Virus record (IMG/VR): IMGVR_UViG_3300036781_000230
Location: 15,072 to 79,071 of that record
Strand: one strand, 5' to 3'
Length of the DNA: 64,000 nucleotides
Source of the DNA: a virus
Shown: positions 2,281 to 64,000 of the stretch, one piece after another
Position numbering within the stretch: position 1 is the stretch's first letter
Layout: each line of letters begins with the position of its first letter
Made by a program: the position numbers and the translations under genes
The notes under the pieces: model-generated
Told to the model about the DNA's origin: nothing
The model's input: only the letters and a program-made list of their open reading frames with translations
Database searches by the model: none

Positions 2281-2292
2281 GGAGTTTAAGAT

Positions 2293-3726
2293 ATGGGATC
2301 ATCTACTTTGCCGCTGTCTATTATCGCCGATGTAACTGTAGTGACATCTTCACCTCAGGTAGCGGCTCCGACCTTTAATATAGGTTTGATTATTGGTCCT
2401 TCAACTGCTATTCCATCGTATGGAGCAAATTCAAGAGTTCGTACGTATCTTGCAGCTACGTACTCTACAGCTATGTTAGCTGACGGATTTACTACTGATG
2501 ACCCTGAGTTTATTTGTGCTCAGATTTATTTCAGTCAATCTCCTCAACCTCAGACACTTCAAATTGGTCGTCAAGATTTAACTGCTATTGCTGCTGCTGC
2601 TCCTGCTGCTTCAGAAGGTGGTACAGGATATGTGGTTGGAGATATCGTAGGAGTGACTCAATCGAGTGCCTCTTTCGGTGAGCTTCGAGTATCTACGATT
2701 GGTACCAACGGCGTAGTTACTGCGCTTACTACAGTTGCTGGCAATCAGGGAACGGGTTATTCTGTAGCTTCTGGCTTGGCTACAACTGGAGGTTCCGGTA
2801 CTGGACTTCAGGTAGATATTACCGCTATTGGAGAAACTCCTCTTCAATCTGTTCAAGTTTGCAGAAATGTTAGTGCTTTGTGGTATCCTTGCATGGTTAC
2901 CACCGCTGTCGACGCTGACCACATTGCTATTTCAGCTTGGGTATTGTCTCAAGTCGGTACAATCTACTTTGGTACTTCCTCAGCTGCTACCGTTCCTGCT
3001 GGAACTGCCGGTAATCCTTTTCTTACCATGTATGGCGCTGGCTCTAAGAGAACCTGGATGCAGTGGGCTACGACGCAAAGCGGACTCATCCCAACACAAG
3101 CATATTTTGTTGCTGCGGTCATGGGTCAAGCTATGGCTTCAAACACTCAACTTGCTAATTCTGCTTTCACTGAAAAGTTTAGCGGTGGAGTTCCTCTCGT
3201 CGGAGTATTCGTAGAACCCAATCTAACTACCACTCAGATTGCTAATATCGAAGGACAGAGCACTTCGCTTGGCCCCAATGGAAATCTTTATCTAAATTAC
3301 GGAAATTCATTCAATGTGCTTGAACAAGGCACCATGATGGCTCCCGGAGTTTTCTTTGATCAGATTTTAAATCTCGATATTCTAGCTTCTAACATTCAGT
3401 TTGCTATCATGAATCTTCTGACTTCATCTCCGAAGATTCCTCAAACTGACGCAGGTCAGCAACTCTTGATACAAGCAGTCGAGTCCGCTCTTACGCAGTC
3501 TGCTAACACCGGATTTATTGCTTCGGGAGTTTGGAAAGGACAGAATATCCTCAACCAGATTACTCCTGGTATGGCTCTTCCAACTGGATTTGCAGTAGTA
3601 TCTCCTCTTTATAAGACTCTTACTTCTGCTCAAATCCAAGCTCGTCAAGCGCCTCCTATTTATGTGGCTCTTATCGAAGCTGGAGCTGTTCACTTCGTGA
3701 CTATCGAAGTTCTTGTACAGGTATAA
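2293..3726 (+). CDS. Contractile tail sheath protein (DUF3383-like)
   Basis: YFSQSPQP, KIPQTDAG, ARQAPPIY, AGAVHFVTI motifs; strong AAGGAG RBS. Confidence 0.9.
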   Translation: MGSSTLPLSIIADVTVVTSSPQVAAPTFNIGLIIGPSTAIPSYGANSRVRTYLAATYSTAMLADGFTTDDPEFICAQIYFSQSPQPQTLQIGRQDLTAIAAAAPAASEGGTGYVVGDIVGVTQSSASFGELRVSTIGTNGVVTALTTVAGNQGTGYSVASGLATTGGSGTGLQVDITAIGETPLQSVQVCRNVSALWYPCMVTTAVDADHIAISAWVLSQVGTIYFGTSSAATVPAGTAGNPFLTMYGAGSKRTWMQWATTQSGLIPTQAYFVAAVMGQAMASNTQLANSAFTEKFSGGVPLVGVFVEPNLTTTQIANIEGQSTSLGPNGNLYLNYGNSFNVLEQGTMMAPGVFFDQILNLDILASNIQFAIMNLLTSSPKIPQTDAGQQLLIQAVESALTQSANTGFIASGVWKGQNILNQITPGMALPTGFAVVSPLYKTLTSAQIQARQAPPIYVALIEAGAVHFVTIEVLVQV

Positions 3727-3740
3727 TCTATAAGTCTCAA

Positions 3741-3831
3741 GGGTTATATGCAATTCGAGTATGAATATACATACATATTTGGGTTGCATATGATTCCATG
3801 GGAATCCAGGATATCTTAGTGATGACCCTGG
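3741..3831. repeat. Dispersed element copy A (ATGCAA-N30-TTGCAT with phased right arm)
   Basis: ATGCAA 3748-3753, TTGCAT 3784-3789, then CCATGG/CCAGG/CTTAG/CCCTGG about every 10 bp. Confidence 0.8.
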
Positions 3832-3878
3832 TGAATACTAATCATCATTTTACTGTTCGGTATTTGAAAGGATAACTC

Positions 3879-4322
3879 ATGGCTACAACCTATGCCTTCA
3901 AGAGTGTTGTCGGGGCTTTTGCTGATCCTGACGTTGGAAGTTTCCCTTTTGCAGGACAAGAGGGGGTCAAGCATATTACGATTGGAAATGCTACAGATCG
4001 TACTGTGCACGACACAGCTGCTGATGGTACTGTCATGGTATCCTATGTTTCAGGTGCTTCTGGTTACGCTGAAATTGAATGCCAACAGAATAGCACTCTT
4101 AATCAGTTTTTAGTTAACTGGGCAAATGCTAAGTTTACAGAGAGTGAAAATGGTGGAGCAGCTAATTTTGCTGCCGCTGTTCTTAAACTCGTAGATCTTC
4201 TATCTGGAGCCAACCATACTCTTACAGGAGTGTCTCCTCTGAAGATTCCAGATAAAGCTTATGGTCCTTCAGGAGCTTCTGTTACTTGGCGATTGATGGC
4301 AGCTCAAGTTGTGACTCAGTAG
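3879..4322 (+). CDS. Tail tube protein (DUF3277-like)
   Basis: 147 aa after sheath; TYAF...ADG...QNSTLNQFL...KIPD...W motifs. Confidence 0.85.
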   Translation: MATTYAFKSVVGAFADPDVGSFPFAGQEGVKHITIGNATDRTVHDTAADGTVMVSYVSGASGYAEIECQQNSTLNQFLVNWANAKFTESENGGAANFAAAVLKLVDLLSGANHTLTGVSPLKIPDKAYGPSGASVTWRLMAAQVVTQ

Positions 4323-49563: not shown

Positions 49564-49764
49564 TTAAAGTTTTCGTCTAAGGAGTTCTACCATCAGAGTT
49601 AATTCATCTGCAGGAAGAAGCACGCGACCAGTACCGCGACACGTAAAGCACCATCTATTGATGTCTTCGTTACCTGAGAAGGAACCTTCCATTCGTGATC
49701 CAGTACCTTTACATCTAGGACACGTCGGATGTAACTCAGTAGTTAACAGTTCCTCGATAGTCAT
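49564..49764 (-). CDS. DnaJ-type zinc-finger small protein
   Basis: CPRCKGTG...CFTCRGTG; ATG 49764. Confidence 0.6.
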   Translation of the reverse strand: MTIEELLTTELHPTCPRCKGTGSRMEGSFSGNEDINRWCFTCRGTGRVLLPADELTLMVELLRRKL

Positions 49765-49773
49765 TGCTCGGAC

Positions 49774-49812
49774 CTCGAGCGGGTGTAAGGCCTCGAGGAC
49801 ACTTCCTCCAGG
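49774..49812. repeat. Left arm of long-range inverted repeat
   Basis: Reverse complement matches 51323-51362 at 34/40 positions. Confidence 0.75.
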
Positions 49813-49989
49813 AATACACAATCTAATATACAGTTATTAGAAAGTGTATATATTAGAAATGGAATCTGGTTATTAGAAAGTGTATTTTCTGAGAGAAGTT
49901 TAAGACCTACGGGACACGTCCTCTGGACGACTCGAGGAGAGTCTACGGTCCGAGTTGTTTGTCTACCAGGAATCATTATTCTCACTAAT

Positions 49990-50835
49990 TCAATTATATA
50001 CCATCTCAATTAAGTTGTAAACAAAATAATGAGCAGCTGTCACACTTAATTTCGTGTAAGAACTACTCATTTTCGATAAACTGTAAAATTGATTATAGGA
50101 GAATATTCAAAGTTTTAGCAGTTTCTTCTTTAGAATCACAAATAATAACAGAATCATCTAAAGGATCATAGATAGTGAAAAATCCATCTGAGTCAAAACG
50201 AACATTAAATCTTCCAATTTCAACTTCATTATTTTCTTCATTTTCTACTGGTTTATTTTCTAAGTTTGTGAGAATTTCTAAAATGTTCATGTTCAATCTC
50301 CTATATCTATAGTATCAAGAATAGAGAATATGTACACAGAAAAGTGAGCAGCCCTATCACTTTTGTTACTCGTCCCAGGATGAGCGAGGCAACTATTCAA
50401 TGTAGTAGCTATTGCCCATTTTCATGAGTTTCGTAGCGGTTGACCCGTGTCACGTAACCCAATTTTCATTAGTGAAAAGATGATAAAAGTAGTGTATCAA
50501 TATAGAGACGCGCACGGGCGCGTATATCATACAATCATTAAGTTGTACACAACTATTTTACTTTATTTTATGATACCCTAATATCATGTAAAAAGTCTAA
50601 AAACTGCTCATTATTCTGTTTACAACTGAAAATGTGATGATATATAGTTATCCTAGATTGATGCTACACAGTAACACACAAGGAGAAACAACAATGTATC
50701 TATTCCTTCTTCCTTCGATGATAGCAACTCTACTCATCAGTTTCATTCAACTTCGTGATCAGTTTCACTCTGCAAAATAATTCAAAAACTGCTCATTATT
50801 TTGTTTACAACTTCAGAATAACAATGTACTATAGA
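49990..50835. promoter_or_regulatory. Cluster of five early promoters (three leftward, two rightward)
   Basis: Repeated (CTGCTCATTATT)TTGT(T/G)TACAACT motif near 50010, 50330, 50540 (-) and 50610, 50795 (+). Confidence 0.7.
50093..50296 (-). CDS. Small acidic early protein
   Basis: AGGAG RBS, directly after a promoter. Confidence 0.6.
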   Translation of the reverse strand: MNMNILEILTNLENKPVENEENNEVEIGRFNVRFDSDGFFTIYDPLDDSVIICDSKEETAKTLNILL

Positions 50836-51278: not shown

Positions 51279-51304
51279 ATGCCTCAGTCTTCGGACTGGG
51301 GCAT
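51279..51304 (+). terminator. Hairpin with cUUCGg loop after wHTH gene
   Basis: ATGCCTCAGTC-TTCG-GACTGGGGCAT. Confidence 0.65.
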
Positions 51305-51322
51305 TCGTGGGTTTGCGAGCGG

Positions 51323-51362
51323 CCTGGAGGATCGATCCTCGAGGCCCTACACCCGTCTCGAG
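51323..51362. repeat. Right arm of long-range inverted repeat
   Basis: CCTGGAGGA-N4-TCCTCGAGGCCCTACACCCGTCTCGAG. Confidence 0.75.
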
Positions 51363-51528
51363 CGGCCTGGAGCGGGCTCATACGGCCTACAGGACATGTC
51401 CTCCAGGAATTGTGTCATTTCACGCGCTAATGGAAAACCAGCCCTCCCGACTGACATAATCCTGGGCCCGGCATTTTCTTAAGAAAAGCTCCCAGTATGG
51501 GGCACCAATCACGGAATATGTGCAATGA

Positions 51529-51900
51529 TCAAACGGCGTTCATAATAGAGAAGATTCTATCACACTCATCTTGAGTAAGAACACGACGATCAATGTAGGC
51601 TGGAGTAAGTTCAGTAAGTAGCCACTCAAGCCTAGAGTCATTTGAGTCGTAACCTACTTCTTTTTCTATTTCATTTGCGAGTTCTCTTAGGGCATCTGGG
51701 AGAGTATCCCCAAAACCCGCAAGTCCTTCCTGAATATCAGAACCTATAAGAGCCAAGACTTGATTACCATCACCTCTACAGTTAACAGCGCAAGGAACAC
51801 TTCTCATGATAGGTCTTTTAATGCTCATTTCTTCATCAGTCATGTTTTCCACTATACTTCTCCTTAATTCTTTTTCTAAGAGCTTCATCACTTTCAACAT
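51529..51900 (-). CDS. HicB-like fold hypothetical protein
   Basis: DGNQ..ALIG..IQEGLAGFGDT..DAL motif. Confidence 0.55.
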   Translation of the reverse strand: MLKVMKLLEKELRRSIVENMTDEEMSIKRPIMRSVPCAVNCRGDGNQVLALIGSDIQEGLAGFGDTLPDALRELANEIEKEVGYDSNDSRLEWLLTELTPAYIDRRVLTQDECDRIFSIMNAV

Positions 51901-52007
51901 AAAGTCCCCACAGTGGGTCCCAGCGAGCGTCAGGATGATCTTCAGGAAGAAACATCCTAGTTACCGAAGGCGGCCGCATAAGGTCATCTAATCTCTTGAT
52001 ATTATCT

Positions 52008-52277
52008 TCAGTCATAAAGTTTTCTATCGTGACTACAGTAGTCTACAGGCCTCTCTTGATCTTCTTGTGGAGTATCTGTTGGCATCCCACAAAATCTACA
52101 AGAGTATGGGTGATCCAGCAGGTACTGAATATCTCTGAGTTTCTGCTCTAAGGGACCTTCATTAAAGTGAGGTCTACTGACGAGATTCAGAATTCTATTC
52201 GTTAAAGTACGGTGACCATTCTTTGGAATACATTGCTTAACTCGCTCTTTATCTCGCTCAATTTTTCTCAGTAACAT
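52008..52277 (-). CDS. Hypothetical protein with C-terminal Zn motif
   Basis: CRFCG...YCSH. Confidence 0.5.
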   Translation of the reverse strand: MLLRKIERDKERVKQCIPKNGHRTLTNRILNLVSRPHFNEGPLEQKLRDIQYLLDHPYSCRFCGMPTDTPQEDQERPVDYCSHDRKLYD

Positions 52278-52279
52278 CT

Positions 52280-52648
52280 TTACGCTCTAGCATCTAATAT
52301 TCCTTTCCAATAACCCGCAGACTCATTAAAATAAGTATCGTATATAGTTCTTAGATTAGTACTAAATTTATCATCATATGATCTAGATAAAGAATCATAA
52401 TAAGACTGTACACTTATTTCTTTTCCAAATAGTGTCTTAATTGGAACTTGGTATTGACTGGCTAAAAATACTGCAAAGTCATAAAATTTCTGGGCCATTA
52501 TCCAGAGAAACTGATTGTCTGATGTGATAGGTCCCGTCACCTGTAATCCAGTTTCCTCAAAAGATGTTTCGGACGCAAGCGCCTTTGAATTGACGCAGAC
52601 GGCGATGGTGGTGGCCGCAAAGAGTCGGAGAAATGTTCTACGTTCCAA
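52280..52648 (-). CDS. Tat-signal protein carrying baseplate-J N-terminal-like fragment
   Basis: MERRTFLRL...ALA leader; SDNQFLWIMAQKFYD vs own ADYQWISALALKLND. Confidence 0.55.
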   Translation of the reverse strand: MERRTFLRLFAATTIAVCVNSKALASETSFEETGLQVTGPITSDNQFLWIMAQKFYDFAVFLASQYQVPIKTLFGKEISVQSYYDSLSRSYDDKFSTNLRTIYDTYFNESAGYWKGILDARA

Positions 52649-52841
52649 GTGAGCCTTCTTTCTGTAAAGCGTTTAATTCTTTTTCAGCGTCTGATTTTGC
52701 TTCTTCAACTGTTGCGAAATATTCACATGGGCCATAGAAGCGGTCGGGTGACGTGCCAAGCGTCCAGACGTACTTCGTGTGAAAACTATTAAACCAAATA
52801 TCTACCTGTACTCCAAGGTACTGATAACGAGCTACGAGCAT
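52638..52841 (-). CDS. Hypothetical early protein
   Basis: Coupled ORF. Confidence 0.55.
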   Translation of the reverse strand: MLVARYQYLGVQVDIWFNSFHTKYVWTLGTSPDRFYGPCEYFATVEEAKSDAEKELNALQKEGSLGT

Positions 52842-53032
52842 TATTTACCTATGCTTTTAAAGTATTTTACCATCAAGTCCATCGTACCAAAGTTTATTAT
52901 ATACGGTATAGCATCTGATTCATGATTAACGTTCGTATTCATCGAACTCTTAACTGCTAAAGGTCTACAATCGCAGCTAGGTTCTGGTTTTCCACACTTA
53001 CCACAAAGGGTCACAGGCATGGCTGTCCGCAC
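52841..53032 (-). CDS. Small Zn-binding protein
   Basis: CGKCG...CDC. Confidence 0.5.
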   Translation of the reverse strand: MRTAMPVTLCGKCGKPEPSCDCRPLAVKSSMNTNVNHESDAIPYIINFGTMDLMVKYFKSIGK

Positions 53033-53481
53033 TTTCCACTAAAACCAGGAGGTACCGGGGCACCACACAAAGAACACGTATTATAATCTTTCGCGTCCCA
53101 TTCTCCGAGTAGATATTTATCGTAGAAGTTAGTATTGTGAGGAAATTCTACGATTTCTGGAAGAGCGTAAGAACGCATAGCAGATTCAAGATCTTTCTTA
53201 GTGATATTTGGATTATCTTTTACTAGCATTACCTCATCTGGTATAAAGTATGGCTTATCTCGTTCTTTAAACCAAGCTCTGACTGCCTTAAGACTAGTTT
53301 CATTAGTAAGCCACTTATCTTTACGCCAACCATTAAAGTAAATAGTCCAATACTTACCTACACGTTTGGCTACGTATGTCGTGCCCCATCCCATTCTAAA
53401 CTCAAATCGGCGACTCGTCATCTGGACGACGGTGCTGACTGGACGAGGCGGTATAACTAGATTTACATTAACTATTCTCAT
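53011..53481 (-). CDS. Protein carrying terminase-like peptides plus Zn ribbon
   Basis: DNPNI and FYDKYLLGEW vs TerL DNPNI and YYQRYILGLW. Confidence 0.55.
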   Translation of the reverse strand: MRIVNVNLVIPPRPVSTVVQMTSRRFEFRMGWGTTYVAKRVGKYWTIYFNGWRKDKWLTNETSLKAVRAWFKERDKPYFIPDEVMLVKDNPNITKKDLESAMRSYALPEIVEFPHNTNFYDKYLLGEWDAKDYNTCSLCGAPVPPGFSGKCGQPCL

Positions 53482-53750
53482 TTTTCTACTATGACTGAAA
53501 TGGTGATGTGAGTCTTAGCCATTATCCTCTCATAACATTCTTTGAACATTTGCTGAACACGTTCATTACCTGCATCGGTGTAGGGAATTTTTTCTCCTGA
53601 GTTTAAAGCAATTAATAGAGAATGCTGAAGATCTGCAGCTAAAGCCTCAAGACCTTCCTCAGTTAGTTTACCTGGAATTTCTATGTAGATAGGTGAAGCA
53701 ATACGAGCATTTTTCTGTTGCTCTTTAAACTTTCGCTCATCTTCAGTCAT
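53478..53750 (-). CDS. Miniature, rearranged tail sheath C-terminal-domain homologue
   Basis: KIPYTDAG, ARIASPIY, HITISVIV all match own sheath motifs. Confidence 0.7.
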   Translation of the reverse strand: MTEDERKFKEQQKNARIASPIYIEIPGKLTEEGLEALAADLQHSLLIALNSGEKIPYTDAGNERVQQMFKECYERIMAKTHITISVIVEK

Positions 53751-54204
53751 ACGGCTCCGGTAAAGCTTTTTGAAGTTTACTGTCTAATTCAAATATCTCA
53801 GTTAAAGAAGGTCCATTAAATTCTATCTGATCAAAGTTTGTCTGATCATATTCCATTAGTACTCCCATAGGTCTGTAGCTATCAATTACCTGCTTAAGCC
53901 TACTCATTAGAGGAGGACTAACATAAGTAGGAACCGTAACTGTAATCGAAAACTTTTCACCGTTTTCTACGACTAACCAACTATCCCCAAGTAACCAAGT
54001 GAGCATTCGGGTCATTTGGTTTTGCCAGGGAATATATCTAGTAGTCAGATACTCATTAAATGGAATACCTACTGGATCTTCAAACATCCACTCAGATTCT
54101 TTTTCTACTATAGGTTCCAAAGGCTCCAGTAACTCCTTTGGAGCGATGGTAGCTATAGCAGCTACTCCAGCAATCTGCTTAAAGAATCCGCGTCTCGTAG
54201 TCAT
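53743..54204 (-). CDS. Tat-signal protein carrying DUF2612-like baseplate wedge fragment
   Basis: MTTRRGFFKQIAGVAAIA leader; W...LVVEN...RPMGVLMEY vs own W...IIIDN...RPQAVQYNY. Confidence 0.55.
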   Translation of the reverse strand: MTTRRGFFKQIAGVAAIATIAPKELLEPLEPIVEKESEWMFEDPVGIPFNEYLTTRYIPWQNQMTRMLTWLLGDSWLVVENGEKFSITVTVPTYVSPPLMSRLKQVIDSYRPMGVLMEYDQTNFDQIEFNGPSLTEIFELDSKLQKALPEPYD

Positions 54205-54329
54205 ATTTTCCTAGCCTTTTCCCACGCTCTTCTAATAGGAGGAGCTATCCAATTCGTAAATCTCTCCAGTAGCATTCCTAAGAAAAACCAAGTGGAGTTG
54301 CTCGAATTAAGCCACTGTCTGATGCTCAT

Positions 54330-54372
54330 AATTAATTATACAATCTATTGTACAAAGTTGTACACAACAATA
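54330..54372 (-). promoter_or_regulatory. Early promoter driving the 51.5-54.3 kb operon
   Basis: TTGTGTACAACT...TGTATAAT on - strand. Confidence 0.7.
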
Positions 54373-54440
54373 TTACTAAGCAGTTATGACGTGCAATAAA
54401 AACTTGCGAAAAAAGCCAGTGGTTGTTATATGATGAATTA

Positions 54441-54587
54441 TAAGCACTGAGTCATCCTTTAACCTTTCACGAAACACGTAAAACGAATCTCCTGACTAAG
54501 ATCGTTAGACGAAGCTATCCGGAGCTATAGCCGGAGCATTAGATCAGGTTGTACGTAGACTCGTGAGTGGAGGTTTAGTTATGCTTG
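54441..54587 (+). ncRNA. Long hairpin leader at start of packaging/head operon
   Basis: Nested complementary blocks; RBS and ATG 54581 lie in the 3' strand. Confidence 0.45.
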
Positions 54588-54748
54588 ATCCTCAAACAGT
54601 GTACTTAATTTCTATCAGTCAATATACTCCGACATTTAAAGAAGTCAGAGAAATGGCTCGCATACTTCATGCTCAAGAATGTTCAAGACAAGTTTTAACT
54701 ACTTCAAGCATTCTGATAGAATCAAATGTTCAGATTGGTCAAGCGTGA
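54581..54748 (+). CDS. Small hypothetical protein
   Basis: GGAGG RBS; similar to C-terminus of 47089-47592. Confidence 0.5.
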   Translation: MLDPQTVYLISISQYTPTFKEVREMARILHAQECSRQVLTTSSILIESNVQIGQA

Positions 54749-55022
54749 GAGGATGAAAATCTGTGATGCGGGAAACCATCTCTATTTTTTCCACTGTCCA
54801 GGTTGCGGTAATGCTCATGGGTTCTCTACTGAACCAGGTCGCTGGACTTTCAATAATGACTACGTCCAACCTACAGTCCAACCTTCAATTCTGTGCAACC
54901 GTGACGATCCACAGACTCGTTGTCACTCATTCATAGAGAATGGGAACATAAGGTTTCTCAATGACTGTCACCATGTCCTTAAAGGACTCACAGTGACGAT
55001 TCCTGATTGGGATAGTTTTTAG
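54726..55022 (+). CDS. DUF6527-like protein
   Basis: CPGCGNAH, WTFNND...PT..PSIL, CHSFI..G.I.FL.DC.H.L.G motifs. Confidence 0.75.
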   Translation: MFRLVKRERMKICDAGNHLYFFHCPGCGNAHGFSTEPGRWTFNNDYVQPTVQPSILCNRDDPQTRCHSFIENGNIRFLNDCHHVLKGLTVTIPDWDSF

Positions 55023-55164
55023 TTCATTGCTTCAAATGAGTTGCTAGCATACCTTTCTAGAGGGTTAACTCGAGTGCCGGCCGTTTGGAGTGTTGAACTG
55101 GGATAGAGCGTTTCACCTAGCCTATCTCAGATTTCTGTAACAATTAAGCCTATGGAGAAAGAGC

Positions 55165-55446
55165 ATGGACTGCTGTGTGTTGAGTTCTGAGGAAGTTGGA
55201 CAGTTAAAGCACTACAAAATTCTTCCTAATCATGAGAATCATCACCACATCCCATGTGAACAAGCTATTCTCGGGCTTAAAGATGAGGATTACGAACTCA
55301 TTAGTGGATTTAACGGTCGTCAGTATCTGACCAAAACTAAGTTGTTTTTCCTGCGCAAAGTACCTTCTGGTGGTAAAGGAGCTATTCCTATAATTCAGAG
55401 AGTAGTCAGTAACCACTTGAAGCATCTGATGCCGATCAAATACTAA
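55165..55446 (+). CDS. Hypothetical protein
   Basis: GGAG RBS; colinear. Confidence 0.55.
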   Translation: MDCCVLSSEEVGQLKHYKILPNHENHHHIPCEQAILGLKDEDYELISGFNGRQYLTKTKLFFLRKVPSGGKGAIPIIQRVVSNHLKHLMPIKY

Positions 55447-55459
55447 GGGAGGTTCAGCT

Positions 55460-55903
55460 ATGTCCCCTTCGAATAGATGGCAACCTGGACAGAGTGGAAA
55501 TCCTTCTGGAGCTCGTAAAGGTCCTCGTAAGAATAATCTCTTAAGTCCTGCTTACAAAGCAATTCTCGGAGATATTCTAGATCAAGAAACAAAAGAAGAA
55601 TTCAAGATGCCTGACGGTTCTACTTGGGCTGATCTTATTGCGAAACACGTAGTTAAACGAGCTGTAGGTAAAGTTCCAGATGAGAAAATTTGCTTTAGGG
55701 CTATTACTGAGCTTCGAGAGACGACTGAAGGAAAAACTCCTGAGAAAGTAATTGCAGCTGGAAGCAATGAAGAACTTGCTAATTTGGCTCGGATCATGCA
55801 GGGAGACCCGGCACCACCTGAGGGAGACGAAGCAGTTATTCAGGACGATGAGGTTACGGAAAATGCCGAAGCTGATTTTCATAGTTCGGCAAATGAGGAA
55901 TAA
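55460..55903 (+). CDS. terS: Terminase small subunit (DUF5681-like N-terminus)
   Basis: WQPGQSGNPSG motif; directly upstream of TerL. Confidence 0.8.
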   Translation: MSPSNRWQPGQSGNPSGARKGPRKNNLLSPAYKAILGDILDQETKEEFKMPDGSTWADLIAKHVVKRAVGKVPDEKICFRAITELRETTEGKTPEKVIAAGSNEELANLARIMQGDPAPPEGDEAVIQDDEVTENAEADFHSSANEE

Positions 55904-55908
55904 GAGTC

Positions 55909-57177
55909 GTGCCAATCTTTAAGCCATTCGGACAAAAAGCCCACGATTTCGTTAAGAGGCATCCGAGTCAGGATAAGAAGTACACTCTTCTAGAGGGTAG
56001 TGTTCGTTCTTCAAAGACGTTTGCTGTAGATGCTAAACTTATACTTCAACTTTGTAACTACAAAGTTAATGGAAAGAGAGTCATTTGCGGAGCTACTAAA
56101 CAAACCGTCTATAAGAACATGCTTCTGGATATATTCCAAGTAGTTGGTAAGAAAAACTACTCTTACAATCGAGCTTCTGGTGAACTCTGGTTATTCGGGG
56201 TTCAGTGGTTCATCATCGGAGCTCGAGACGAAGCAAGCTACAAGAACATTCTTGGTATGACCATTGGTATCGCGCTCTGCGATGAGTGGACTGAATTTCC
56301 AAGAAGTTTTACAATGCAGTTGTTTCTTCGACTTTCTCCCCCGGGCTCGAGGCTATATGCTACCACAAACCCTGGGACACCTCAGCACTATCTTTTCACT
56401 GAAGTCATTCATAACGAGAACTTTGCTCCTGATCTTGAAGTTATTCACTTCACACTTGAAGATAATCCCAATATTGAACCCGATCAAAAGAGACAGATTA
56501 TCGCCTCTCAGAAAGGTGTTTACTATCAGCGATATATTTTAGGGTTGTGGGTGGTGGCTGAAGGAGCCATTTACAAGGATGCGTGGTCTGATGATCTACT
56601 GTACAATGATCAAACTAGACCCGAAGGATTGTATGGTTCTGGTGGGTACAATAAGCATATTATAGCTATTGACCACGGGACGCACAATCCCTGTACGTTC
56701 TTAGAGTTCTTCGATGATGGTGAAGTAGCGTGGATGGATCGAGAGTATTACTGGGATTCAGTTAAAGAGATGAGGCAGAAAACTAATTCTGAATACGCCG
56801 ACGATTTAGAAGAGTTTATTGCCAGCTCTAGAGTCATAGGAGTTAACAATCCTATGATTGTAGTTGATCCTGCTGCAGCCGGTTTTAAAATTGAGCTAGT
56901 AAAACGCGGCTTATATGTAGTTGATGCGAATAATGAAGTTCTCGAAGGTATTCACCGAACCTCTGAAGTAATGGCTTGTAAAGCATTGAGGGTTCATGAA
57001 GATTGCGCGAATGAGCGTCGAGAATGTGGTCTATATTCCTGGGATAAAAAAGCCGGGGAAAAGGGCAATGAGCAACCACTCAAAGTTAATGACCATACTC
57101 AAGACGCTAAAAGATATGGAGTAATGGAACTGTTCCCAGAATGGAGAATGGTATCTACTCTTCAAAGAGCGGCTTAA
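55909..57177 (+). CDS. terL: Terminase large subunit (PBSX-like)
   Basis: EGSVRSSKT, CDE, TTNP, DNP, IDHG, VDPAA, NDHTQDAKRY motifs. Confidence 0.95.
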   Translation: MPIFKPFGQKAHDFVKRHPSQDKKYTLLEGSVRSSKTFAVDAKLILQLCNYKVNGKRVICGATKQTVYKNMLLDIFQVVGKKNYSYNRASGELWLFGVQWFIIGARDEASYKNILGMTIGIALCDEWTEFPRSFTMQLFLRLSPPGSRLYATTNPGTPQHYLFTEVIHNENFAPDLEVIHFTLEDNPNIEPDQKRQIIASQKGVYYQRYILGLWVVAEGAIYKDAWSDDLLYNDQTRPEGLYGSGGYNKHIIAIDHGTHNPCTFLEFFDDGEVAWMDREYYWDSVKEMRQKTNSEYADDLEEFIASSRVIGVNNPMIVVDPAAAGFKIELVKRGLYVVDANNEVLEGIHRTSEVMACKALRVHEDCANERRECGLYSWDKKAGEKGNEQPLKVNDHTQDAKRYGVMELFPEWRMVSTLQRAA

Positions 57178-57186
57178 GGAGCTAAA

Positions 57187-57516
57187 ATGGCACATAATTT
57201 TGGTGGTTTCTCAGCTTATGCTAATGATGAAGCACCCATCGAAGAAATGTCGAATGATGGTGGACTTCCTGGTTCTCCTTACTATGCTGGAGACGGTGGT
57301 GATGGTTCTGGCGTAATGAGACGTCATCATGTGGAAGGTCTTCCTGATCTCGATCGTAAACCGGCTGAAGACTCGATGTCTATTCCTGAGGGAATGAATT
57401 CGGGAATGAGTGGAGATTCACTTGGACCAAGCGGTAAGAAATTTACCGAACATCTTCATTCTCGTAAAAGTGATGGTAAATTTGAACCATCATCTTTACG
57501 AGGAAAGAACGAATAG
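57187..57516 (+). CDS. Low-complexity head-module protein
   Basis: AAGGAG RBS; HSRKSDGKF motif; several AxD sites. Confidence 0.6.
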   Translation: MAHNFGGFSAYANDEAPIEEMSNDGGLPGSPYYAGDGGDGSGVMRRHHVEGLPDLDRKPAEDSMSIPEGMNSGMSGDSLGPSGKKFTEHLHSRKSDGKFEPSSLRGKNE

Positions 57517-57544
57517 TAGTTAAATTCGCAGTACTGAAAGGGAA

Positions 57545-57832
57545 ATGATGAAACGCCTTGCCTATACTCTCTTGCTTCTAACGGTGGTTCCTCTGACACA
57601 AGCTCAGACTCCTACTCCGCCTCAGTCTCAACCGACCCAAACTCTGACGAATGATCCAGTTTTTCGACAGATGGTAACTGAACGTGAACTTCTATTTAAG
57701 AAACTCCAAGACATTACTGAGTTTCAACAGTTCATGCAGGTTGAGCGAAGCATCGAGCAATACATGGCTTCTCATCCTCAGGCTCCTGATCCTAAGAGTG
57801 CTGTTCCAGTAAAACCTGCTTCGAAGAAGTAA
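57545..57832 (+). CDS. Secreted small protein
   Basis: MMKRLAYTLLLLTVVPLTQA signal peptide. Confidence 0.6.
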   Translation: MMKRLAYTLLLLTVVPLTQAQTPTPPQSQPTQTLTNDPVFRQMVTERELLFKKLQDITEFQQFMQVERSIEQYMASHPQAPDPKSAVPVKPASKK

Positions 57833-57853
57833 TTCTAAAAGAAAGGAGGTCTG

Positions 57854-59503
57854 ATGCCACGCAAGAAATCTACCTCTAGTATCAGACCTCTTCCAGCCAA
57901 TGACGATGCTAATTACGTTCGTCGTCCTAGTGGTATTGCTACAGACAGTTATAGCAATGCTCCTGCTCGTCTGGGTACTGGTACTCCTAATCTTGTACAG
58001 GCTGGCAACTATCCTCTAATTCGTCTTACTGAGGATTATCCGCTTATACTCAGTCTTTATCGAAGTTCTTGGGTTATTCGTAGAGTCATAGACACTGTAG
58101 CTAATCACATTTACAGTTCTTTTCCTACTCTTACGGCTGATCTAAAGCCTGAGCAGATAAGAGATTTTGATAGAGTAGTTCGAAAGACAGGCACTCTTAC
58201 TAAACTGCGCTCAGCCCAGAAGTGGGGGCGACTCTTTGGTGGCGCAGGTGCTGTGATTGTAATTGAAGGTCACGACGACTTGATGCAACCACTTAGTTTG
58301 GATGATGTGGAAGTAGGTTCTTTCAAAGGACTTATTCCTTTAGATCGTTGGTCTGGTATCATTCCAGGACCTCAAATCGATTCTAACATCAATAACATCG
58401 GAAATTTCGGTTTACCTCTTTACTATAACTGTATAATGGATGCTGGAAATGTGAACATCCATCACAGTCGAATTCTACGGTTTACTGGTAGGGAACTTCC
58501 TCAGTGGGAAGTACAAGTTGAACTTTACTGGGGAATGTCAGAAGTTGAAATCGTTTTCGATGAGCTTCGAAAAAGAGATTATAGTTCTTGGAACATCGTT
58601 TCTCTACTTACTCGTGCTCAAGTCTTAAGTATTGAAGAACCGCAGTTAGCTACTCTGATGTCTGGAGCTGGTGGCAGCAATAAGTCCTACGGTGATTTCA
58701 TTAAGAGAATGGAATCTATTAGCCAACTTCTTAATAATCAAGGACTGTTAGTTCTCGGTAAAGACGGCAAGCTTCAACAGACTTCATACGGATTCGGTGG
58801 TATTTCTGACGTTTATCATGAGTTCATGAAAGACCTTGCGGCTTCCTGTGAGATTCCGTACGAAATCATCTTTGGAAGAGAATCTGGTCTTGGAAGCAAT
58901 TCTGAAGGTTCTCTTCAGCTTTATGATAATCTCATCGAAGAAAAACGTAAATCTGAAGCTGATCCTAATATGGATAGACTTATTCCTATTATAGCTCAGA
59001 GTACTTTCGGTTTCGTTCCCGATGATATCGACCACGCATGGTCGCCGTTTAGATCGCTATCGCAAGAGCAGCGTAATAATCTTGCTCGTGGAACTACTAC
59101 CTCTATTGTTGAGGCCTTCAATTCCGATCTAATTACTAAACGTGAAGCACGAACTGAACTCAGAAATTCTAGCTTAGTTCATGATCAATTTAGTAGCATC
59201 ACTAAAGAAGCTCTAGCAGCAACCCCAGATAAGTTCGCCTCTGAGCTTGGTATGGGAGAAGTACAGGTACCTGAAGGAGGAGGTGATCCATTCTCTGAAG
59301 GAAACAAAGAGGAAAAACCTGCTAAAGAGAAATCTGATGATGACAAATCCGACAAAGAAGAGTCTTCGAAGAAATCTAAAAAGAAGAAAAGTAAATTAGC
59401 AAAAGATTCCTATCCTTCAGTTGAGAGTGAATCTCTCAAAAATCCAATAGGCTTACTCGACTGGATAAGTAATAAAATTAATCTATTTAGGGCTTCGCAA
59501 TGA
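57854..59503 (+). CDS. Portal protein (DUF1073-like)
   Basis: LYRSSW, WGRLFGGA, IHHSRILRF, WGMS, IPYEIIFG motifs. Confidence 0.9.
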   Translation: MPRKKSTSSIRPLPANDDANYVRRPSGIATDSYSNAPARLGTGTPNLVQAGNYPLIRLTEDYPLILSLYRSSWVIRRVIDTVANHIYSSFPTLTADLKPEQIRDFDRVVRKTGTLTKLRSAQKWGRLFGGAGAVIVIEGHDDLMQPLSLDDVEVGSFKGLIPLDRWSGIIPGPQIDSNINNIGNFGLPLYYNCIMDAGNVNIHHSRILRFTGRELPQWEVQVELYWGMSEVEIVFDELRKRDYSSWNIVSLLTRAQVLSIEEPQLATLMSGAGGSNKSYGDFIKRMESISQLLNNQGLLVLGKDGKLQQTSYGFGGISDVYHEFMKDLAASCEIPYEIIFGRESGLGSNSEGSLQLYDNLIEEKRKSEADPNMDRLIPIIAQSTFGFVPDDIDHAWSPFRSLSQEQRNNLARGTTTSIVEAFNSDLITKREARTELRNSSLVHDQFSSITKEALAATPDKFASELGMGEVQVPEGGGDPFSEGNKEEKPAKEKSDDDKSDKEESSKKSKKKKSKLAKDSYPSVESESLKNPIGLLDWISNKINLFRASQ

Positions 59504-59949
59504 AAACTCTATTTGCAAATGCTCTCGATGGTCTTTACTGGGCTAATGACTCATTACCTACTAAGAAATTTCATGACTTAACTTTAGTCATCGAAACTCC
59601 TAAGTTCGAGATGAGACAAGGTCCTGGATGGATGTCCAGCCCACCGGCCGACTACGGCTATATCCTGGATACTACAGGTGCTGACGGTGACGAGATGGAT
59701 TGCTATCTAGGACCTAACCCAGAAAGTACTATAGTATACGTAGTTGATCAGAACAGAATGGATAGTTCTGAATTCGATGAGCATAAGTGTATGCTGGGCT
59801 ATAAGTCTATGGCAGAAGCCAAAAAAGATTACTATGATGGCCACACTCATGGTACTCAGATCTTCAGAGGTATAACTGCCATGACTCTGAGCGTATTTAA
59901 AGCTTGGCTTAAACATGGAGATGTCTCTAAGCCTATAATTTTACGGTAA
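59500..59949 (+). CDS. Inorganic pyrophosphatase-like domain protein
   Basis: IETPK..R, YGYI..T.GADGDEMDC, FDEHKCMLG motifs. Confidence 0.8.
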   Translation: MKTLFANALDGLYWANDSLPTKKFHDLTLVIETPKFEMRQGPGWMSSPPADYGYILDTTGADGDEMDCYLGPNPESTIVYVVDQNRMDSSEFDEHKCMLGYKSMAEAKKDYYDGHTHGTQIFRGITAMTLSVFKAWLKHGDVSKPIILR

Positions 59950-60108
59950 CAAGATTAAAAGAGACTTATATGACTAACGATGAAATCTATCGATTAGCAA
60001 AGGCTGAAGACGTACGTTGTATTAAGCCTCTTATGAATTTAGTTACTCTAGCTGCTCTGGAAATTCTTAAATTAGAAAGTAAAACTCCAGTACCAGAGGG
60101 AGTGAAAT

Positions 60109-60972
60109 TTGTCGACCTCTTTCCTCGTCCCTGATCGTATAGAATCTGCTTATAGATCAGCTATATCAAAAGTAGTTATGTCTTGGGTTCCTCCAAAGTT
60201 AAAAGGCATAAGTCCTTCTTATTGGCTGAAAGAACTAGCTGATGTTAGTACTCGTAAAAGTATTATTAATGCTAGTACTAATATAGCAGTAAATATGGTG
60301 AGTAGAGTCAATGTGGTAAATGTAAAGTCTTGGAGAGAAGCTGCTCTCAAGGCCCAAAGTAGCAGGTACATTTATGATCTTCTACAACAAGAGTTATCTG
60401 GTCCACTAGGAATACGAGTTAGACAATTAGTTTTAGAAAATGCTAGAATAGTAGGACAAATACCTGGCGATGTCGCTGATATTCTGTCTGAAGAAATAGC
60501 TAAAGCTCAACAGCAAGGAACTAGACCTGAAGCCCTCGAAGCCCTTTTGAAACATCGCTTCACAGACATAATGTCTTGGAAAATAGCTCAGGTAGCTAGA
60601 ACTCAGTCTGGGTCAGCTAGTACTGCGTTAACCAGAGCTCGAAGTGAAGAACTAGGACTTCCATGTTTTATCTGGGATACTTCTGAAGATAGACGAGTTC
60701 GTCATTCTCACCAGATCATGGACGGTGTTGTAGTTTTCTGGAATGATTTACCTTCTCCTGAATCTTTAGCCGGGCAAAAAAGTTCTTTCGGTCGTTATGC
60801 TCCTGGAGATTGTACTAACTGTAGGTGTTATCCTCGTCCAGTGTTAACCCTTGAAGATGTTTTCTCTAAGAAAACTAATCTTATTAAAGTATACACTGAT
60901 GGTCATATAGTTAAAATGACTAGAATGAATTTTTCTAAGAAATCTGGTATTGAATCCAGAATGGCTGCTTAA
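60109..60972 (+). CDS. Minor head morphogenesis protein (Mu gpF/SPP1 gp7-like)
   Basis: ARTQ, W.T..D.RVR.SH, PG...NCRC motifs. Confidence 0.88.
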   Translation: MSTSFLVPDRIESAYRSAISKVVMSWVPPKLKGISPSYWLKELADVSTRKSIINASTNIAVNMVSRVNVVNVKSWREAALKAQSSRYIYDLLQQELSGPLGIRVRQLVLENARIVGQIPGDVADILSEEIAKAQQQGTRPEALEALLKHRFTDIMSWKIAQVARTQSGSASTALTRARSEELGLPCFIWDTSEDRRVRHSHQIMDGVVVFWNDLPSPESLAGQKSSFGRYAPGDCTNCRCYPRPVLTLEDVFSKKTNLIKVYTDGHIVKMTRMNFSKKSGIESRMAA

Positions 60973-60983
60973 GGAGAATTACT

Positions 60984-61397
60984 ATGAAGAATTTGGTCCG
61001 AATTATCTTAGCTCTTTTGCTCGGAACATCTGTTTGTCTCGCGCAGTCTGCTGGTCCAGTTGCTGCGGTTCCTGGTACTCCAGGTGCTGTTGCTGTATAT
61101 GGAACTCCTATTAACGGAACTCCAGTCATTGTTCCTGGCACTGTGATTCCGACGAACGGTAAGAGTGTACTTACTGGTACTATTACGGCAACTACAGCAA
61201 CTACGGCTCCAGCAACTATTACTGGAGTAACTACGAGTTCGGTTTGTGTTTTCTCTGCTGCTAATGCTATAGCTGCGGCTGCTATTATAGCAGATAATGC
61301 TTTCATTACCCCTACTGCTAATACAGTAACTCTTACATTTAGCGCAGCTCCAGCGACTACAGGTGGAATCTTTAAAGTTCATTGTACTGTGAACTAA
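60984..61397 (+). CDS. Signal-peptide protein with beta domain shared with fibre C-terminus
   Basis: MKNLVRIILALLLGTSVCLA leader; AAGGAG RBS. Confidence 0.65.
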   Translation: MKNLVRIILALLLGTSVCLAQSAGPVAAVPGTPGAVAVYGTPINGTPVIVPGTVIPTNGKSVLTGTITATTATTAPATITGVTTSSVCVFSAANAIAAAAIIADNAFITPTANTVTLTFSAAPATTGGIFKVHCTVN

Positions 61398-61406
61398 GAG
61401 GATAAT

Positions 61407-61607
61407 ATGGCAATTGATCCTGGAAAATCAGTTTTTCCATCAGATAATCAAACTCCCTTTGAAGGTGTTGAGAATCTAAATCCTGGTAATGGTGGTGGAA
61501 ACAGTGGTGCTGTACTTAGTCCAGCTCCTGGTCTTGGTTTATCTGCTTATCAAGATCCTAGAGTTCCTGTGAAAGCACCGTTACCTAATCGTCAAGGAGG
61601 TAGCTAG
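61407..61607 (+). CDS. Small Pro/Gly-rich head-module protein
   Basis: GAGGA RBS; colinear. Confidence 0.55.
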   Translation: MAIDPGKSVFPSDNQTPFEGVENLNPGNGGGNSGAVLSPAPGLGLSAYQDPRVPVKAPLPNRQGGS

Positions 61608-61609
61608 CC

Positions 61610-61948
61610 ATGGCAAAAATCAATGGCGGATATAGCGCAGTTTCATGGGGTCCTACTGTGGATTTAACTCCACACGATAATGGACCTATTCCAGAAATGA
61701 GTACAAGCATTCCCAGTTCAATTCCTGAGCTTGGAATTCTCACTGATGGTGATCCCTATTCTGGAATAGGAAACTACGGTAGTTCTGAAATTCCTCCGGC
61801 TATGGATTCTGATTTTTCAAAGTTAGAACATAAGTTAGAGCATAAACCGGGAGTTACCAATCCTGCTGGCCTCGCAGCAAGTATTGGAAGAAAAGAACTC
61901 GGACAAGCTGAAATGACCCGTCGAAGTGAAGAAGGTCGTAAGCACTAA
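61610..61948 (+). CDS. Head-module protein
   Basis: AGGAGG RBS; F.KLE..L...GV.NP.GLAA.IGRK..G motif. Confidence 0.6.
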   Translation: MAKINGGYSAVSWGPTVDLTPHDNGPIPEMSTSIPSSIPELGILTDGDPYSGIGNYGSSEIPPAMDSDFSKLEHKLEHKPGVTNPAGLAASIGRKELGQAEMTRRSEEGRKH

Positions 61949-63348
61949 TGCCTAAGTATTACTCATTGATGCTTAGTCCCAACATCTCAAAAACTGTTGA
62001 GGGCTATCTGATATGTAAGGATGTTCCTCTTTGTCGTAGTGGCTATCAAGATTATCTAGGTAAAGAACTAGAAGATTTTACCGGCTACGAAAAATCCTGG
62101 GATTTGAATCCAAATCAAATCTACAGAGTATATCGACCTAAAGATGAAGTTCTTCATCCAGATTTCATTGCTAGTCTCGAGGGAAAGACTACAGTAGATG
62201 AGCATCCCGAAGGAAACGTAGTTCATGTTGATAATGAAAAAGAGGTCAACTGTGGACACGTTCAGAATGTTCGTCAAGGTCCCATTATTGATGGAGAAGT
62301 TACCCTCATCGGTGACATTATCATCAAGGATCTGGATCTTATTGAAAAAGTTCGACCAGAAAGCGATCCGGATAATGAATACGGAACCGCTGTTCGTGAC
62401 GTAAGTTGCGGCTATGGTCTTCACCTCAAGCGTCTCGATGATGGGACGATTGTGATGCATCGGTTGCGTGGAAACCACGTAGCTGTAGTTGAAAAAGGTA
62501 GGGCCGGTCCAAGGTTTGCTATCAAGGATTCTGCTCTGCCCGAAATCAAAATAATCAAGGAGCCGATTATGTCACTAAGAAAGACGATTATCGGGCGAGG
62601 AATCCAAGCACTCTTTGGAGATATCAGCCAAGCGGAAAAAGACAGCCTCATGGCTGAGCTTGACGCTTCTGGTACCGCTAAGATTGCGACAGATGCTGAA
62701 CCCAAGGAAATGCACCCTGCTCACGCTTGCTTGGATCGCTGCTTGTCAGCGATGAAAGCGGGAGACTCCGCAGCTCTTGAAGAGCATAAGAAAGAACTCT
62801 TCAAACACATCGGTCATCATGAGCCTGAGCACATGGATGATTCTGAGGTGGAAAAGCTCAAGGATGAAGAGAAAGAAGAAAAGAAAGAGCACAAAGCCGG
62901 TGATGAGGAACTCGAGCAGGAAGAAAAAACTCCTGCAGAAGAATCCGAAGAAACCCACGCTACTGACTCTGAAAAAGCTGAGAAAGAGATCAACGATCCT
63001 GGTGAATCTGTTCTCAAGGCCGCTAACGATTCTGTTCGTGATTACATTCGAAACACTCGTCCTTTGGTTGCAGTGATCGCAAGCAAGGATAAGAGCAAAC
63101 GTTCGAAACATGAGCAAGTTATGCTTGATAGTTACAACGGCGCTGTTAAAGGCCTTAACTCTCAGGTTGGTCGTCGATCTACTTATTCGGCTCTTGCTCG
63201 TACGAAGAAACCCGAAGGTATTCCTGCTTTGGCTACTGATTCTTCAGCAGTTACCAAAGCTCCTGAGACCTGCAATTGTTTTGATGGTGTTCCGTACAAG
63301 GTCGGTCTCAAACGTCACGAAACCGCTCATCAGAAGGGAGCTAACTAA
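61948..63348 (+). CDS. Prohead protease/scaffold (DUF2213-like)
   Basis: EGYL, RSG.Q.Y, VYRP.DEV, SCGY, NHVAVV..GRAG motifs; charged C-terminal scaffold region. Confidence 0.88.
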   Translation: MPKYYSLMLSPNISKTVEGYLICKDVPLCRSGYQDYLGKELEDFTGYEKSWDLNPNQIYRVYRPKDEVLHPDFIASLEGKTTVDEHPEGNVVHVDNEKEVNCGHVQNVRQGPIIDGEVTLIGDIIIKDLDLIEKVRPESDPDNEYGTAVRDVSCGYGLHLKRLDDGTIVMHRLRGNHVAVVEKGRAGPRFAIKDSALPEIKIIKEPIMSLRKTIIGRGIQALFGDISQAEKDSLMAELDASGTAKIATDAEPKEMHPAHACLDRCLSAMKAGDSAALEEHKKELFKHIGHHEPEHMDDSEVEKLKDEEKEEKKEHKAGDEELEQEEKTPAEESEETHATDSEKAEKEINDPGESVLKAANDSVRDYIRNTRPLVAVIASKDKSKRSKHEQVMLDSYNGAVKGLNSQVGRRSTYSALARTKKPEGIPALATDSSAVTKAPETCNCFDGVPYKVGLKRHETAHQKGAN

Positions 63349-63353
63349 CCAAT

Positions 63354-63914
63354 ATGCCAGCCTCAGTAATTCCTGTAAAAGGACTATACCTCGGCTTTGT
63401 CGGCAACATCAGCAACGAAGGTTTCTCTCTTCGTACTGCTCGGCAAGTCAATCCTTCGGATACGAATCCTATCGCCTTCGGCGAAACCTTCGTTCTGAAT
63501 GCCAACAACACCTACTCCAGTGTCAAGACCTTTGTTGCTGCTAGTGGAACCGTTACCGCTGCGACTCCGATGGGAATTGCTGTTAGTAACGTCAACATTA
63601 ATCCTACCTATAACACTCAAGGTACGGATGGCGTTAACACCCCTGGTGGAGTTTATTTGCCTGGGACCATCATGGATGGCCTTGTTCAAGGAACTATTAA
63701 CGTCAGCTGCAATAACGGTACTCCAACAGCTGGTGGAAATGTCTATATTCGGACAGTTCTCAACGGTGCTATTCCGAATGGAGTTATCGGTGGACTCGAA
63801 GCTCAGGCGGACGGCTCAAACAGCGTTCTCTACCCGAACTTCAAATGGAAGACTGGTTTCCTCGAGACGGATCTTACGGCTCAGGTTACTATCCTTCAGC
63901 GCACTATTGCCTAA
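63354..63914 (+). CDS. Capsid decoration/cement protein
   Basis: Between protease and capsid; IAFG, GTINV, GGNVYIR motifs. Confidence 0.7.
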   Translation: MPASVIPVKGLYLGFVGNISNEGFSLRTARQVNPSDTNPIAFGETFVLNANNTYSSVKTFVAASGTVTAATPMGIAVSNVNINPTYNTQGTDGVNTPGGVYLPGTIMDGLVQGTINVSCNNGTPTAGGNVYIRTVLNGAIPNGVIGGLEAQADGSNSVLYPNFKWKTGFLETDLTAQVTILQRTIA

Positions 63915-63932
63915 TCGGCGGAAAGGTAAGAA

Positions 63933-64000
63933 ATGAATCCCAGAGAATATCAACAGAGCCTAAACGCTCTGCGCAGTGGGAAGGTACTTTCCGATGCCGC
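63933..64000 (+). CDS. Probable major capsid protein, 3'-truncated by window edge
   Basis: AAAGG RBS, ATG 63933 (MNPREYQQSLNALRSGKVLSDA); assigned by synteny only. Confidence 0.55.
   Translation, partial: MNPREYQQSLNALRSGKVLSDA

Follow-up and report, generated by a model that had tools for sequence, protein, structure and literature searches.

Why would a phage encode, in an operon that leads away from its terminase, head and tail genes, a 90-aa protein resembling the inner part of its own tail sheath, with the pieces in a different order? The gene in question lies at 53478–53750 on the minus strand of the window, the term used here for the whole 64,000-nucleotide stretch of DNA analyzed, which corresponds to bases 15072–79071 of a 79-kb IMG/VR record from a soil metagenome. 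A search for sequencing runs listed one soil-metagenome DNA run, from which the record probably originated, and no RNA run. The ORF is intact, and the plus strand carries many stops and no open frame over the same interval. A GGAG sequence is found 6 nt 5′ of the ATG. Its first codon overlaps the stop of the gene before it (ATGACTGA), and its own stop shares bases with the start codon of the next gene (ATGA), which indicates that this mini-sheath gene is translationally coupled to both neighbors. The upstream neighbor (53743–54204, minus strand) encodes a 153-aa protein with a Tat-like RRxFF leader, and the downstream neighbor (53011–53481, minus strand) a 156-aa protein with a C-terminal Cys-rich ribbon; they are 58% and 62% identical, respectively, to their counterparts in a sister variant of the phage described below. 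A promoter-like site at 54335–54364 (minus strand; TGTACA-18-TATAAT, 10/12 positions), putative as a match to the consensus, stands at the head of this leftward operon, of which the mini-sheath gene is the third gene, approximately 600 bp downstream of the site.

The phage's own tail sheath is a 477-aa protein of the DUF3383/type-2 kind encoded by the ORF at 2293–3726 on the plus strand (Pfam DUF3383, E = 3e-44; phrog_205, E = 2e-67). It matches the solved Pam3 sheath in sequence (E = 4e-12) as well as gp6, the tail sheath protein in the baseplate complex of phage XM1 (7KH1). The AlphaFold2 model of this sheath (pLDDT 84.7) retrieved the XM1, Bas63, Sf14, phiTE and Pam3 sheaths with Foldseek at E-values of 1e-20 to 1e-17. 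In the phiTE sheath, nearly all contacts with the tube are made by helices alpha9 and alpha10 of the inner domain, D1; from alpha10, the chain passes through a loop that touches the tube, strand S1, a short loop containing a small helix, and strand S2, before it ends in the C-terminal strand S3 (PMC11972413). The lattice is bound together by a four-stranded hinge sheet to which one subunit contributes S1 and S2, a subunit in the next ring S3, and the neighbor of the latter its N-terminal S4 (PMC11972413). The same arrangement is found in the sheaths of Pam3 (PMC9942802) and A-1(L) (PMC10966104). In the model of the sheath studied here, these elements correspond to helices 355–378 and 386–406 (alpha9/alpha10), strand 433–436 (S1), helix 445–449 (the small helix) and strand 457–460 (S2), and the arms 1–23 (S4) and 465–477 (S3) have pLDDT values below 50, as expected of strands that need a partner. 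On the DNA, the D1 helices are encoded at 3355–3510, the S2 motif at 3631–3672 and S3 at 3691–3720. The gene directly after the sheath gene (3879–4322, plus strand, 147 aa) matches Pfam KPP10_Orf10 and phrog_280, both of which are named only as structural proteins; its position suggests that it encodes the tail tube, and its product would then be the candidate partner of the helix pair of the mini-sheath protein.

The initial annotation had described the mini-sheath product as a permuted miniature of the C-terminal domain of the sheath, after matching three of its segments to sheath peptides. All of these sheath peptides lie in ORF 2293–3726 on the plus strand, at 3367–3498, 3631–3666 and 3691–3717, and each of the three matches held, with unequal strength. 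The central segment (residues 31–79; 53514–53660, minus strand) is a helix-loop-helix with a KIPYTDAG loop, homologous to the D1 helices at sheath residues 355–406, that is, to the tube-contacting alpha9/alpha10 of phiTE. The ungapped match of 14 identical residues in 44 was counted correctly, and homology is backed by BLASTP (mini-sheath residues 34–80 on residues 361–403 of the phage's own sheath, E = 1e-6), by shuffling (z of approximately 11.7; 0/2000 shuffles) and by family-against-family HHalign (E = 4e-5). Against a second, marine subgroup of sheaths, HHalign gave an E-value of 6e-8 for the same region, with a probability of 94.7%. A sheath-like family, phrog_9590, was matched by seven of the eight members of the mini-sheath family and DUF3383 by four of the eight, the best member reaching an E-value of 3e-4 against DUF3383. 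The mini-sheath protein itself scores 13.2 bits against Pfam DUF3383 (PF11863), below the cut-off of 34.9, over residues 33–75 only (profile positions 371–413 of 493). A profile of the family matched the Sf14 and Bas63 sheath chains with E-values of 0.035–0.1.

The second segment, an R-x-A-x-P-I-Y motif at residues 12–25 (53676–53717, minus strand) preceded by a predicted helix at residues 3–14, corresponds to the small helix and hinge strand S2 of the sheath (residues 447–460). It had been reported to match the sheath while preceding the helices, and its 7 identities in 12 positions are exact. HHalign placed it on sheath residues 447–460 in an alternative alignment (E = 1.4e-4), and this site was the best ungapped one in 202 of the 217 member-by-sheath pairs. 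The profile-profile score at this site was 25.3, compared to 3.0 at the next-best one, and was not reached in any of 2000 column shuffles. The third segment is the C-terminal strand, H-I-T-I-S-V-I-V (residues 80–89; 53484–53513, minus strand), likened at first to the sheath peptide HFVTIEVLV and corresponding to the C-terminal donor strand S3 (sheath residues 467–476). The sheath end is its best site, by a modest score: HHalign gave an E-value of 0.26, the site ranked first in 130 of 248 pairs, and the profile score was 17.3 against 11.3, a value reached by 16/2000 column shuffles (p of approximately 0.008). The strand is the last one in both proteins and is preceded in both by a conserved His; two relatives have A-G-K-H where sheaths have A-G-A-V-H. 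Judged from these alignments, the resemblance is beyond chance for all three pieces, the helices being the strongest, followed by the N-terminal motif and then by the C-terminal strand.

The order in the sheath is helices, S1, S2, S3, and the order in the mini-sheath protein is S2, helices, S3. Because the three motif matches are significant, the non-colinear order is real at the level of sequence motifs, and we consider it probable that the small protein is rearranged relative to the sheath. The term "permuted" thus fits only in the loose sense that the motif order differs from that of the sheath, and the event that it names is better described as a transposition. A strict circular permutation was rejected: it would keep S3 directly after S2, and in the mini-sheath protein the helices lie between them. 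Alternatively, the protein could be a plain colinear fragment, with an N-terminal strand equivalent to the one that immediately precedes the helices in the sheath and a C-terminal strand equivalent to S1, which immediately follows them. Two alignments fit such a fragment: a BLASTP match to one marine-type sheath runs colinearly over residues 9–82 (E = 2e-8), and the family profile aligned colinearly to a post-helix strand of the Sf14 sheath. However, the profile score of the pre-helix region is only approximately 0.8, compared to 25.3 for S2, the N-terminal motif was placed before the helices in only 1 of 217 pairs, and HHalign against the marine group gave nothing significant outside residues 33–79. 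We therefore regard a colinear origin as very unlikely.

The predicted structure bears on the helices in particular. An AlphaFold2 model of the monomer, built from an eight-sequence alignment (pLDDT 72.8, pTM 0.53), contains helices at residues 3–14, 31–50 and 59–79, the last two of which are modeled with confidence and correspond to sheath helices 355–378 and 386–406. The small protein thus has a D1 helix pair homologous to that of sheaths, with predicted helices at the corresponding positions. No strands were predicted, and residues 81–86 have pLDDT values below 50, as does the sheath itself in its C-terminal arm. The structural check proposed with the initial annotation, namely that a model should reproduce both the helix pair and the beta arrangement of the sheath, therefore came out in part, the helix pair being reproduced and the beta arrangement not. 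Fold searches with the model (Foldseek against the PDB, VIA-align) retrieved generic helical hairpins only (Z < 6). Superposition on the Pam3 sheath gave a Z of 3.2 and an rmsd of 2.5 Å over 60 residues (model residues 30–89 on chain residues 273–377), which is compatible with the homology and not discriminating. A predicted complex of the sheath and the mini-sheath protein scored 0.00 and carries no weight either way.

Compared with the D1 domain of the DUF3383/type-2 sheaths (that of this phage, Pam3 gp13 in 8HDW, phiTE in 9CB9, and those of XM1, Sf14 and Bas63), the small protein shares the helix-loop-helix with its KIPxTDxG loop, the R-x-A-P-x-I-x-V motif formed by the small helix and S2, and a terminal His followed by the strand (S3) that ends the protein. 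It differs in its length of 90 aa, in the placement of S2 before the helices, in the absence of S1, of the S4 arm and of domains D2, D3 and D4, and in being encoded by a dispensable gene of a non-structural operon. It also lacks the tube loop, and sheath residues 1–354 and 404–440 have no counterpart in it. Since S1, the S4 arm and the outer domains are needed for the lattice, it is reasonable to infer that the protein is unlikely to polymerize as a sheath does.

HMMER, run exhaustively against 1.8 billion cluster representatives, retrieved seven true relatives of 86–170 aa. Full-length matches had E-values of 1e-23 to 4e-7; one marginal relative (P0012) matched over the helix pair only (E = 3e-4). 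Four of the relatives (P0002, P0003, P0006 and P0007) are 86–89 aa long, and in two longer ones of 149–170 aa (P0004 and P0005) the module forms the C-terminal part. Four further HMMER matches (P0008–P0011) were rejected as repeat-protein false positives. The cluster of each of the seven relatives holds one or two sequences only among approximately 15 billion proteins. A metagenome scan yielded one 1.8-kb contig (L003, which encodes P0005) in addition to 15 full-length sheath genes. A word-based homolog search recovered the query alone, megablast against phage GenBank entries gave no match, scans of IMG/VR and bacterial genomes revealed no member of the family, and the ESM Atlas gave no usable match to the mini-sheath protein. 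No Pfam or PHROG family covers this protein or its relatives. The members are 30–60% identical, and their alignment retains the R-x-A-x-P-I-Y motif, the K-I-P-Y-x-D/E-x-G loop, the second helix and the terminal strand; such conservation of the three motifs in diverged relatives, in whole ORFs whose length stays constant, indicates that they are under selection. The mini-sheath protein has the features by which the family is delimited: a length of 86–92 aa (or a C-terminal module in a protein of 149–170 aa), R-x-A-x-P-I-Y, KIPY-x-D/E-x-G and a terminal strand ending in E-K. We conclude with high confidence that it belongs to a rare and undescribed family of approximately 90-aa proteins derived from the D1 domain of DUF3383/type-2 sheaths. 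As a side observation, the most distant relative, P0012/P0133 (92–96 aa), has R-V-S-P-T-I-T-I-I-Y at its end, a sequence similar to S2 motifs found in some sheaths; this C-terminal motif scored 27 against one sheath (L018) and was not significant overall. In this relative, the S2-like motif sits after the helices, as in sheaths, and the protein may be an independently derived colinear fragment of D1.

The first 13,200 bases of the IMG/VR record are a diverged second copy of window positions 51279–64000 (56–98% protein identity, offset of approximately 65,848 bp). This diverged end duplication suggests that the record wraps around a genome of approximately 66 kb and joins two related, co-occurring variants; the carrier of the mini-sheath gene is a soil myophage of that size. 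DNA homology to the sister variant covers both neighbors of the gene (window positions 53244–53481 and 53756–54037) and ends at the borders of the mini-sheath ORF or within 5 bases of them, and in the sister variant the slot is taken by a 66-aa ORF of no relation to it (record positions 2100–2300, minus strand). These borders, together with the unrelated ORF, point to a gene-for-gene cassette swap. A relative whose TerL is 98% identical (L020) lacks the whole block of five or six genes at the head of the operon, from the 42-aa to the 67-aa ORF (window positions ~52638–54329), and its leftward operon (L020 positions 1600–4200) begins directly at a Tat-leader gene. Moreover, none of 32 related loci encodes a member of the mini-sheath family. 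The swap in the slot and the absence from L020 and from the 32 related loci thus identify the mini-sheath gene as a cassette that the phage can do without, located in an accessory region that is hypervariable and promoter-proximal.

Other genes of the same operon (window positions 51529–54372) had been proposed as mimics of wedge, terminase, portal and baseplate J proteins, and all of these pairs gave BLAST E-values of 0.03 or worse. BLAST lent no support to the 153-aa neighbor as a mimic of the DUF2612 wedge protein (E = 67) or to the 156-aa neighbor as a mimic of TerL (E = 1.7–2.7). The 153-aa protein has a weak Pfam match to Phage_Mu_Gp48 (E = 0.01, 16 bits). In an all-against-all BLASTP comparison of the genome, the pair formed by the mini-sheath protein and the sheath was the sole similarity between an early and a virion protein. 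By these comparisons, the sheath mimic alone stands among the mimics proposed in the leftward operon.

As seven independent clusters contain whole ORFs of 86–92 aa and the gene has a ribosome-binding site and overlapping start and stop codons, the mini-sheath protein is a real, selected accessory gene product. The explanation of its role that we favor is that it would act as a soluble, non-polymerizing mimic of the module through which the sheath faces the tube and forms its hinge. Mapped onto the phiTE sheath, it retains both helices by which the sheath is held on the tube (alpha9-loop-alpha10, with the conserved KIPxTDxG loop), has the small helix and S2 ahead of them, and has the donor strand S3 directly behind them. 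Such a protein could compete for the outer face of the tail tube, for the free hinge strands of sheath subunits, or for both, and could thereby cap or delay sheath polymerization, either on rival related tails or, until the baseplate is ready, on the tail of the phage itself. The protein seems to be produced from the part of the leftward, non-structural operon nearest the promoter, its timing being deduced from gene position. We consider this competitive binding possible rather than probable. The S2 and S3 strands of a sheath hinge belong to separate subunits in adjacent rings (PMC11972413). If they lie side by side in the hinge sheet, as the numbering of the strands suggests, one such "handshake" between subunits may be recreated by the small protein in one chain; alternatively, its strands may be used in trans, as they are in the sheath. 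It should be noted that a mimic fitted to the type of sheath that the phage itself has (R-x-A-P-P-I-Y) could be expected to interfere with the assembly of its own tails as well, which counts against a competitive binder. The initial annotation had gone one step further, proposing that selection acts to present the sheath surface without polymerization. The retention of the three motifs in the relatives and the reasonable inference that the protein does not polymerize are in line with this proposal; the presentation of the surface is not borne out by a model that contains no strands.

A more specific version of this role is doubtful. It holds that the protein is a self-complemented, single-chain copy of the hinge, with S2 and S3 set on the tube-binding helices, which would poison the polymerization of a rival sheath or blind a host sensor of the sheath, and that it would exemplify a general, undescribed accessory class of virion-part mimics. 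Every contractile tail, tailocin and injection system depends on the hinge sheet and the D1 helices to stay in one piece and attached to its tube. If the proposed role is correct, the mini-sheath protein would therefore offer a natural tool with which to probe or inhibit sheath assembly and a concrete test case for phage mimics of their own virion proteins, be it in competition, timing or immune evasion. If the mimic role is false, it would still represent a new small sheath-derived family.

Among the other functions considered, an immune decoy comes first: a mimic made early could occupy a host sensor of the inner sheath domain without activating it. A promoter-proximal, hypervariable accessory slot is a typical position for anti-defense genes, and the most conserved loop of the sheath is the one kept in the small protein. 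However, one would expect such a sensor to be triggered, and not silenced, by a faithful mimic, and the protein matches no defense or anti-defense family in Pfam or PHROG. In the literature that we found, no sheath-sensing defense system is documented and such sensing is mentioned speculatively only; a 2026 preprint on Avs receptors lists the tail sheath as a possible future, hypothetical target of STAND sensors. Taken together, a decoy seems unlikely.

We also considered a role in the phage's own tail, either as a chaperone that covers the arms of the sheath or the surface of the tube and so averts premature polysheath formation, or as a minor virion component that fills out the hinge sheet at one sheath end. 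Hinge-sheet strands are known to be supplied at the two ends of the sheath by C-terminal extensions of the terminator and by the sheath initiator (gp25/TssE-like) (PMC11972413), so that strand donation by such proteins is established. They are also a precedent for the mimicry favored above, as they imitate strands of the hinge (S3/S4, or S1/S2) without polymerizing and without being sheath proteins. They differ from the mini-sheath protein in that they are structural and essential, have their genes in the tail module, and possess no homolog of alpha9/alpha10; the mini-sheath protein gave no Pfam or PHROG match to terminators or initiators, GPW_gp25 included, at E-values up to 1. An own-tail function would also agree with the S2-like motif, which fits the phage's own sheath subfamily best and not the marine subgroup. 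In contrast, the gene lies outside the structural module, an unrelated gene replaces it in the sister variant, it is missing from the relative with the 98% identical TerL, which has the same kind of tail, and the phage already has a neck/tail-completion gene (phrog_222). These observations make a part in tail assembly quite improbable. Finally, although the rarity of the family among approximately 15 billion proteins and the dispensability of the gene among close relatives could suggest a neutral relic of a sheath-gene duplication or a functionless chance resemblance, the intact ORF with coupled translation signals and the motifs kept at 30–60% identity speak against a relic and the shuffle and profile statistics exclude chance, so that we give this reading hardly any credence.

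A few further features of the region are worth recording. A tRNA scan of the sequence found none. Tat-like twin-arginine leaders, which are unusual among phage early genes, begin the products of 53743–54204 (T-R-R-G-F-F-K) and 52280–52648 (E-R-R-T-F-L-R), both on the minus strand. Both proteins are kept in the sister variant (58% and 56%, respectively), and the 122-aa one is also found in L019, L020 and L022. Cys-x2-Cys pairs typical of zinc ribbons occur in the products of 53011–53481, 52841–53032 and 52008–52277 (all minus strand), with no family match. Lastly, the ORFs at 49761–50009 and 51279–51482, which lie on opposite strands, both contain the peptide S-S-R-P-Y-T-R, and a 28-aa stretch encoded at 51399–51482 recurs with 100% identity at the start of the record, which fits a conserved repeated DNA element flanking the region of the wHTH gene.
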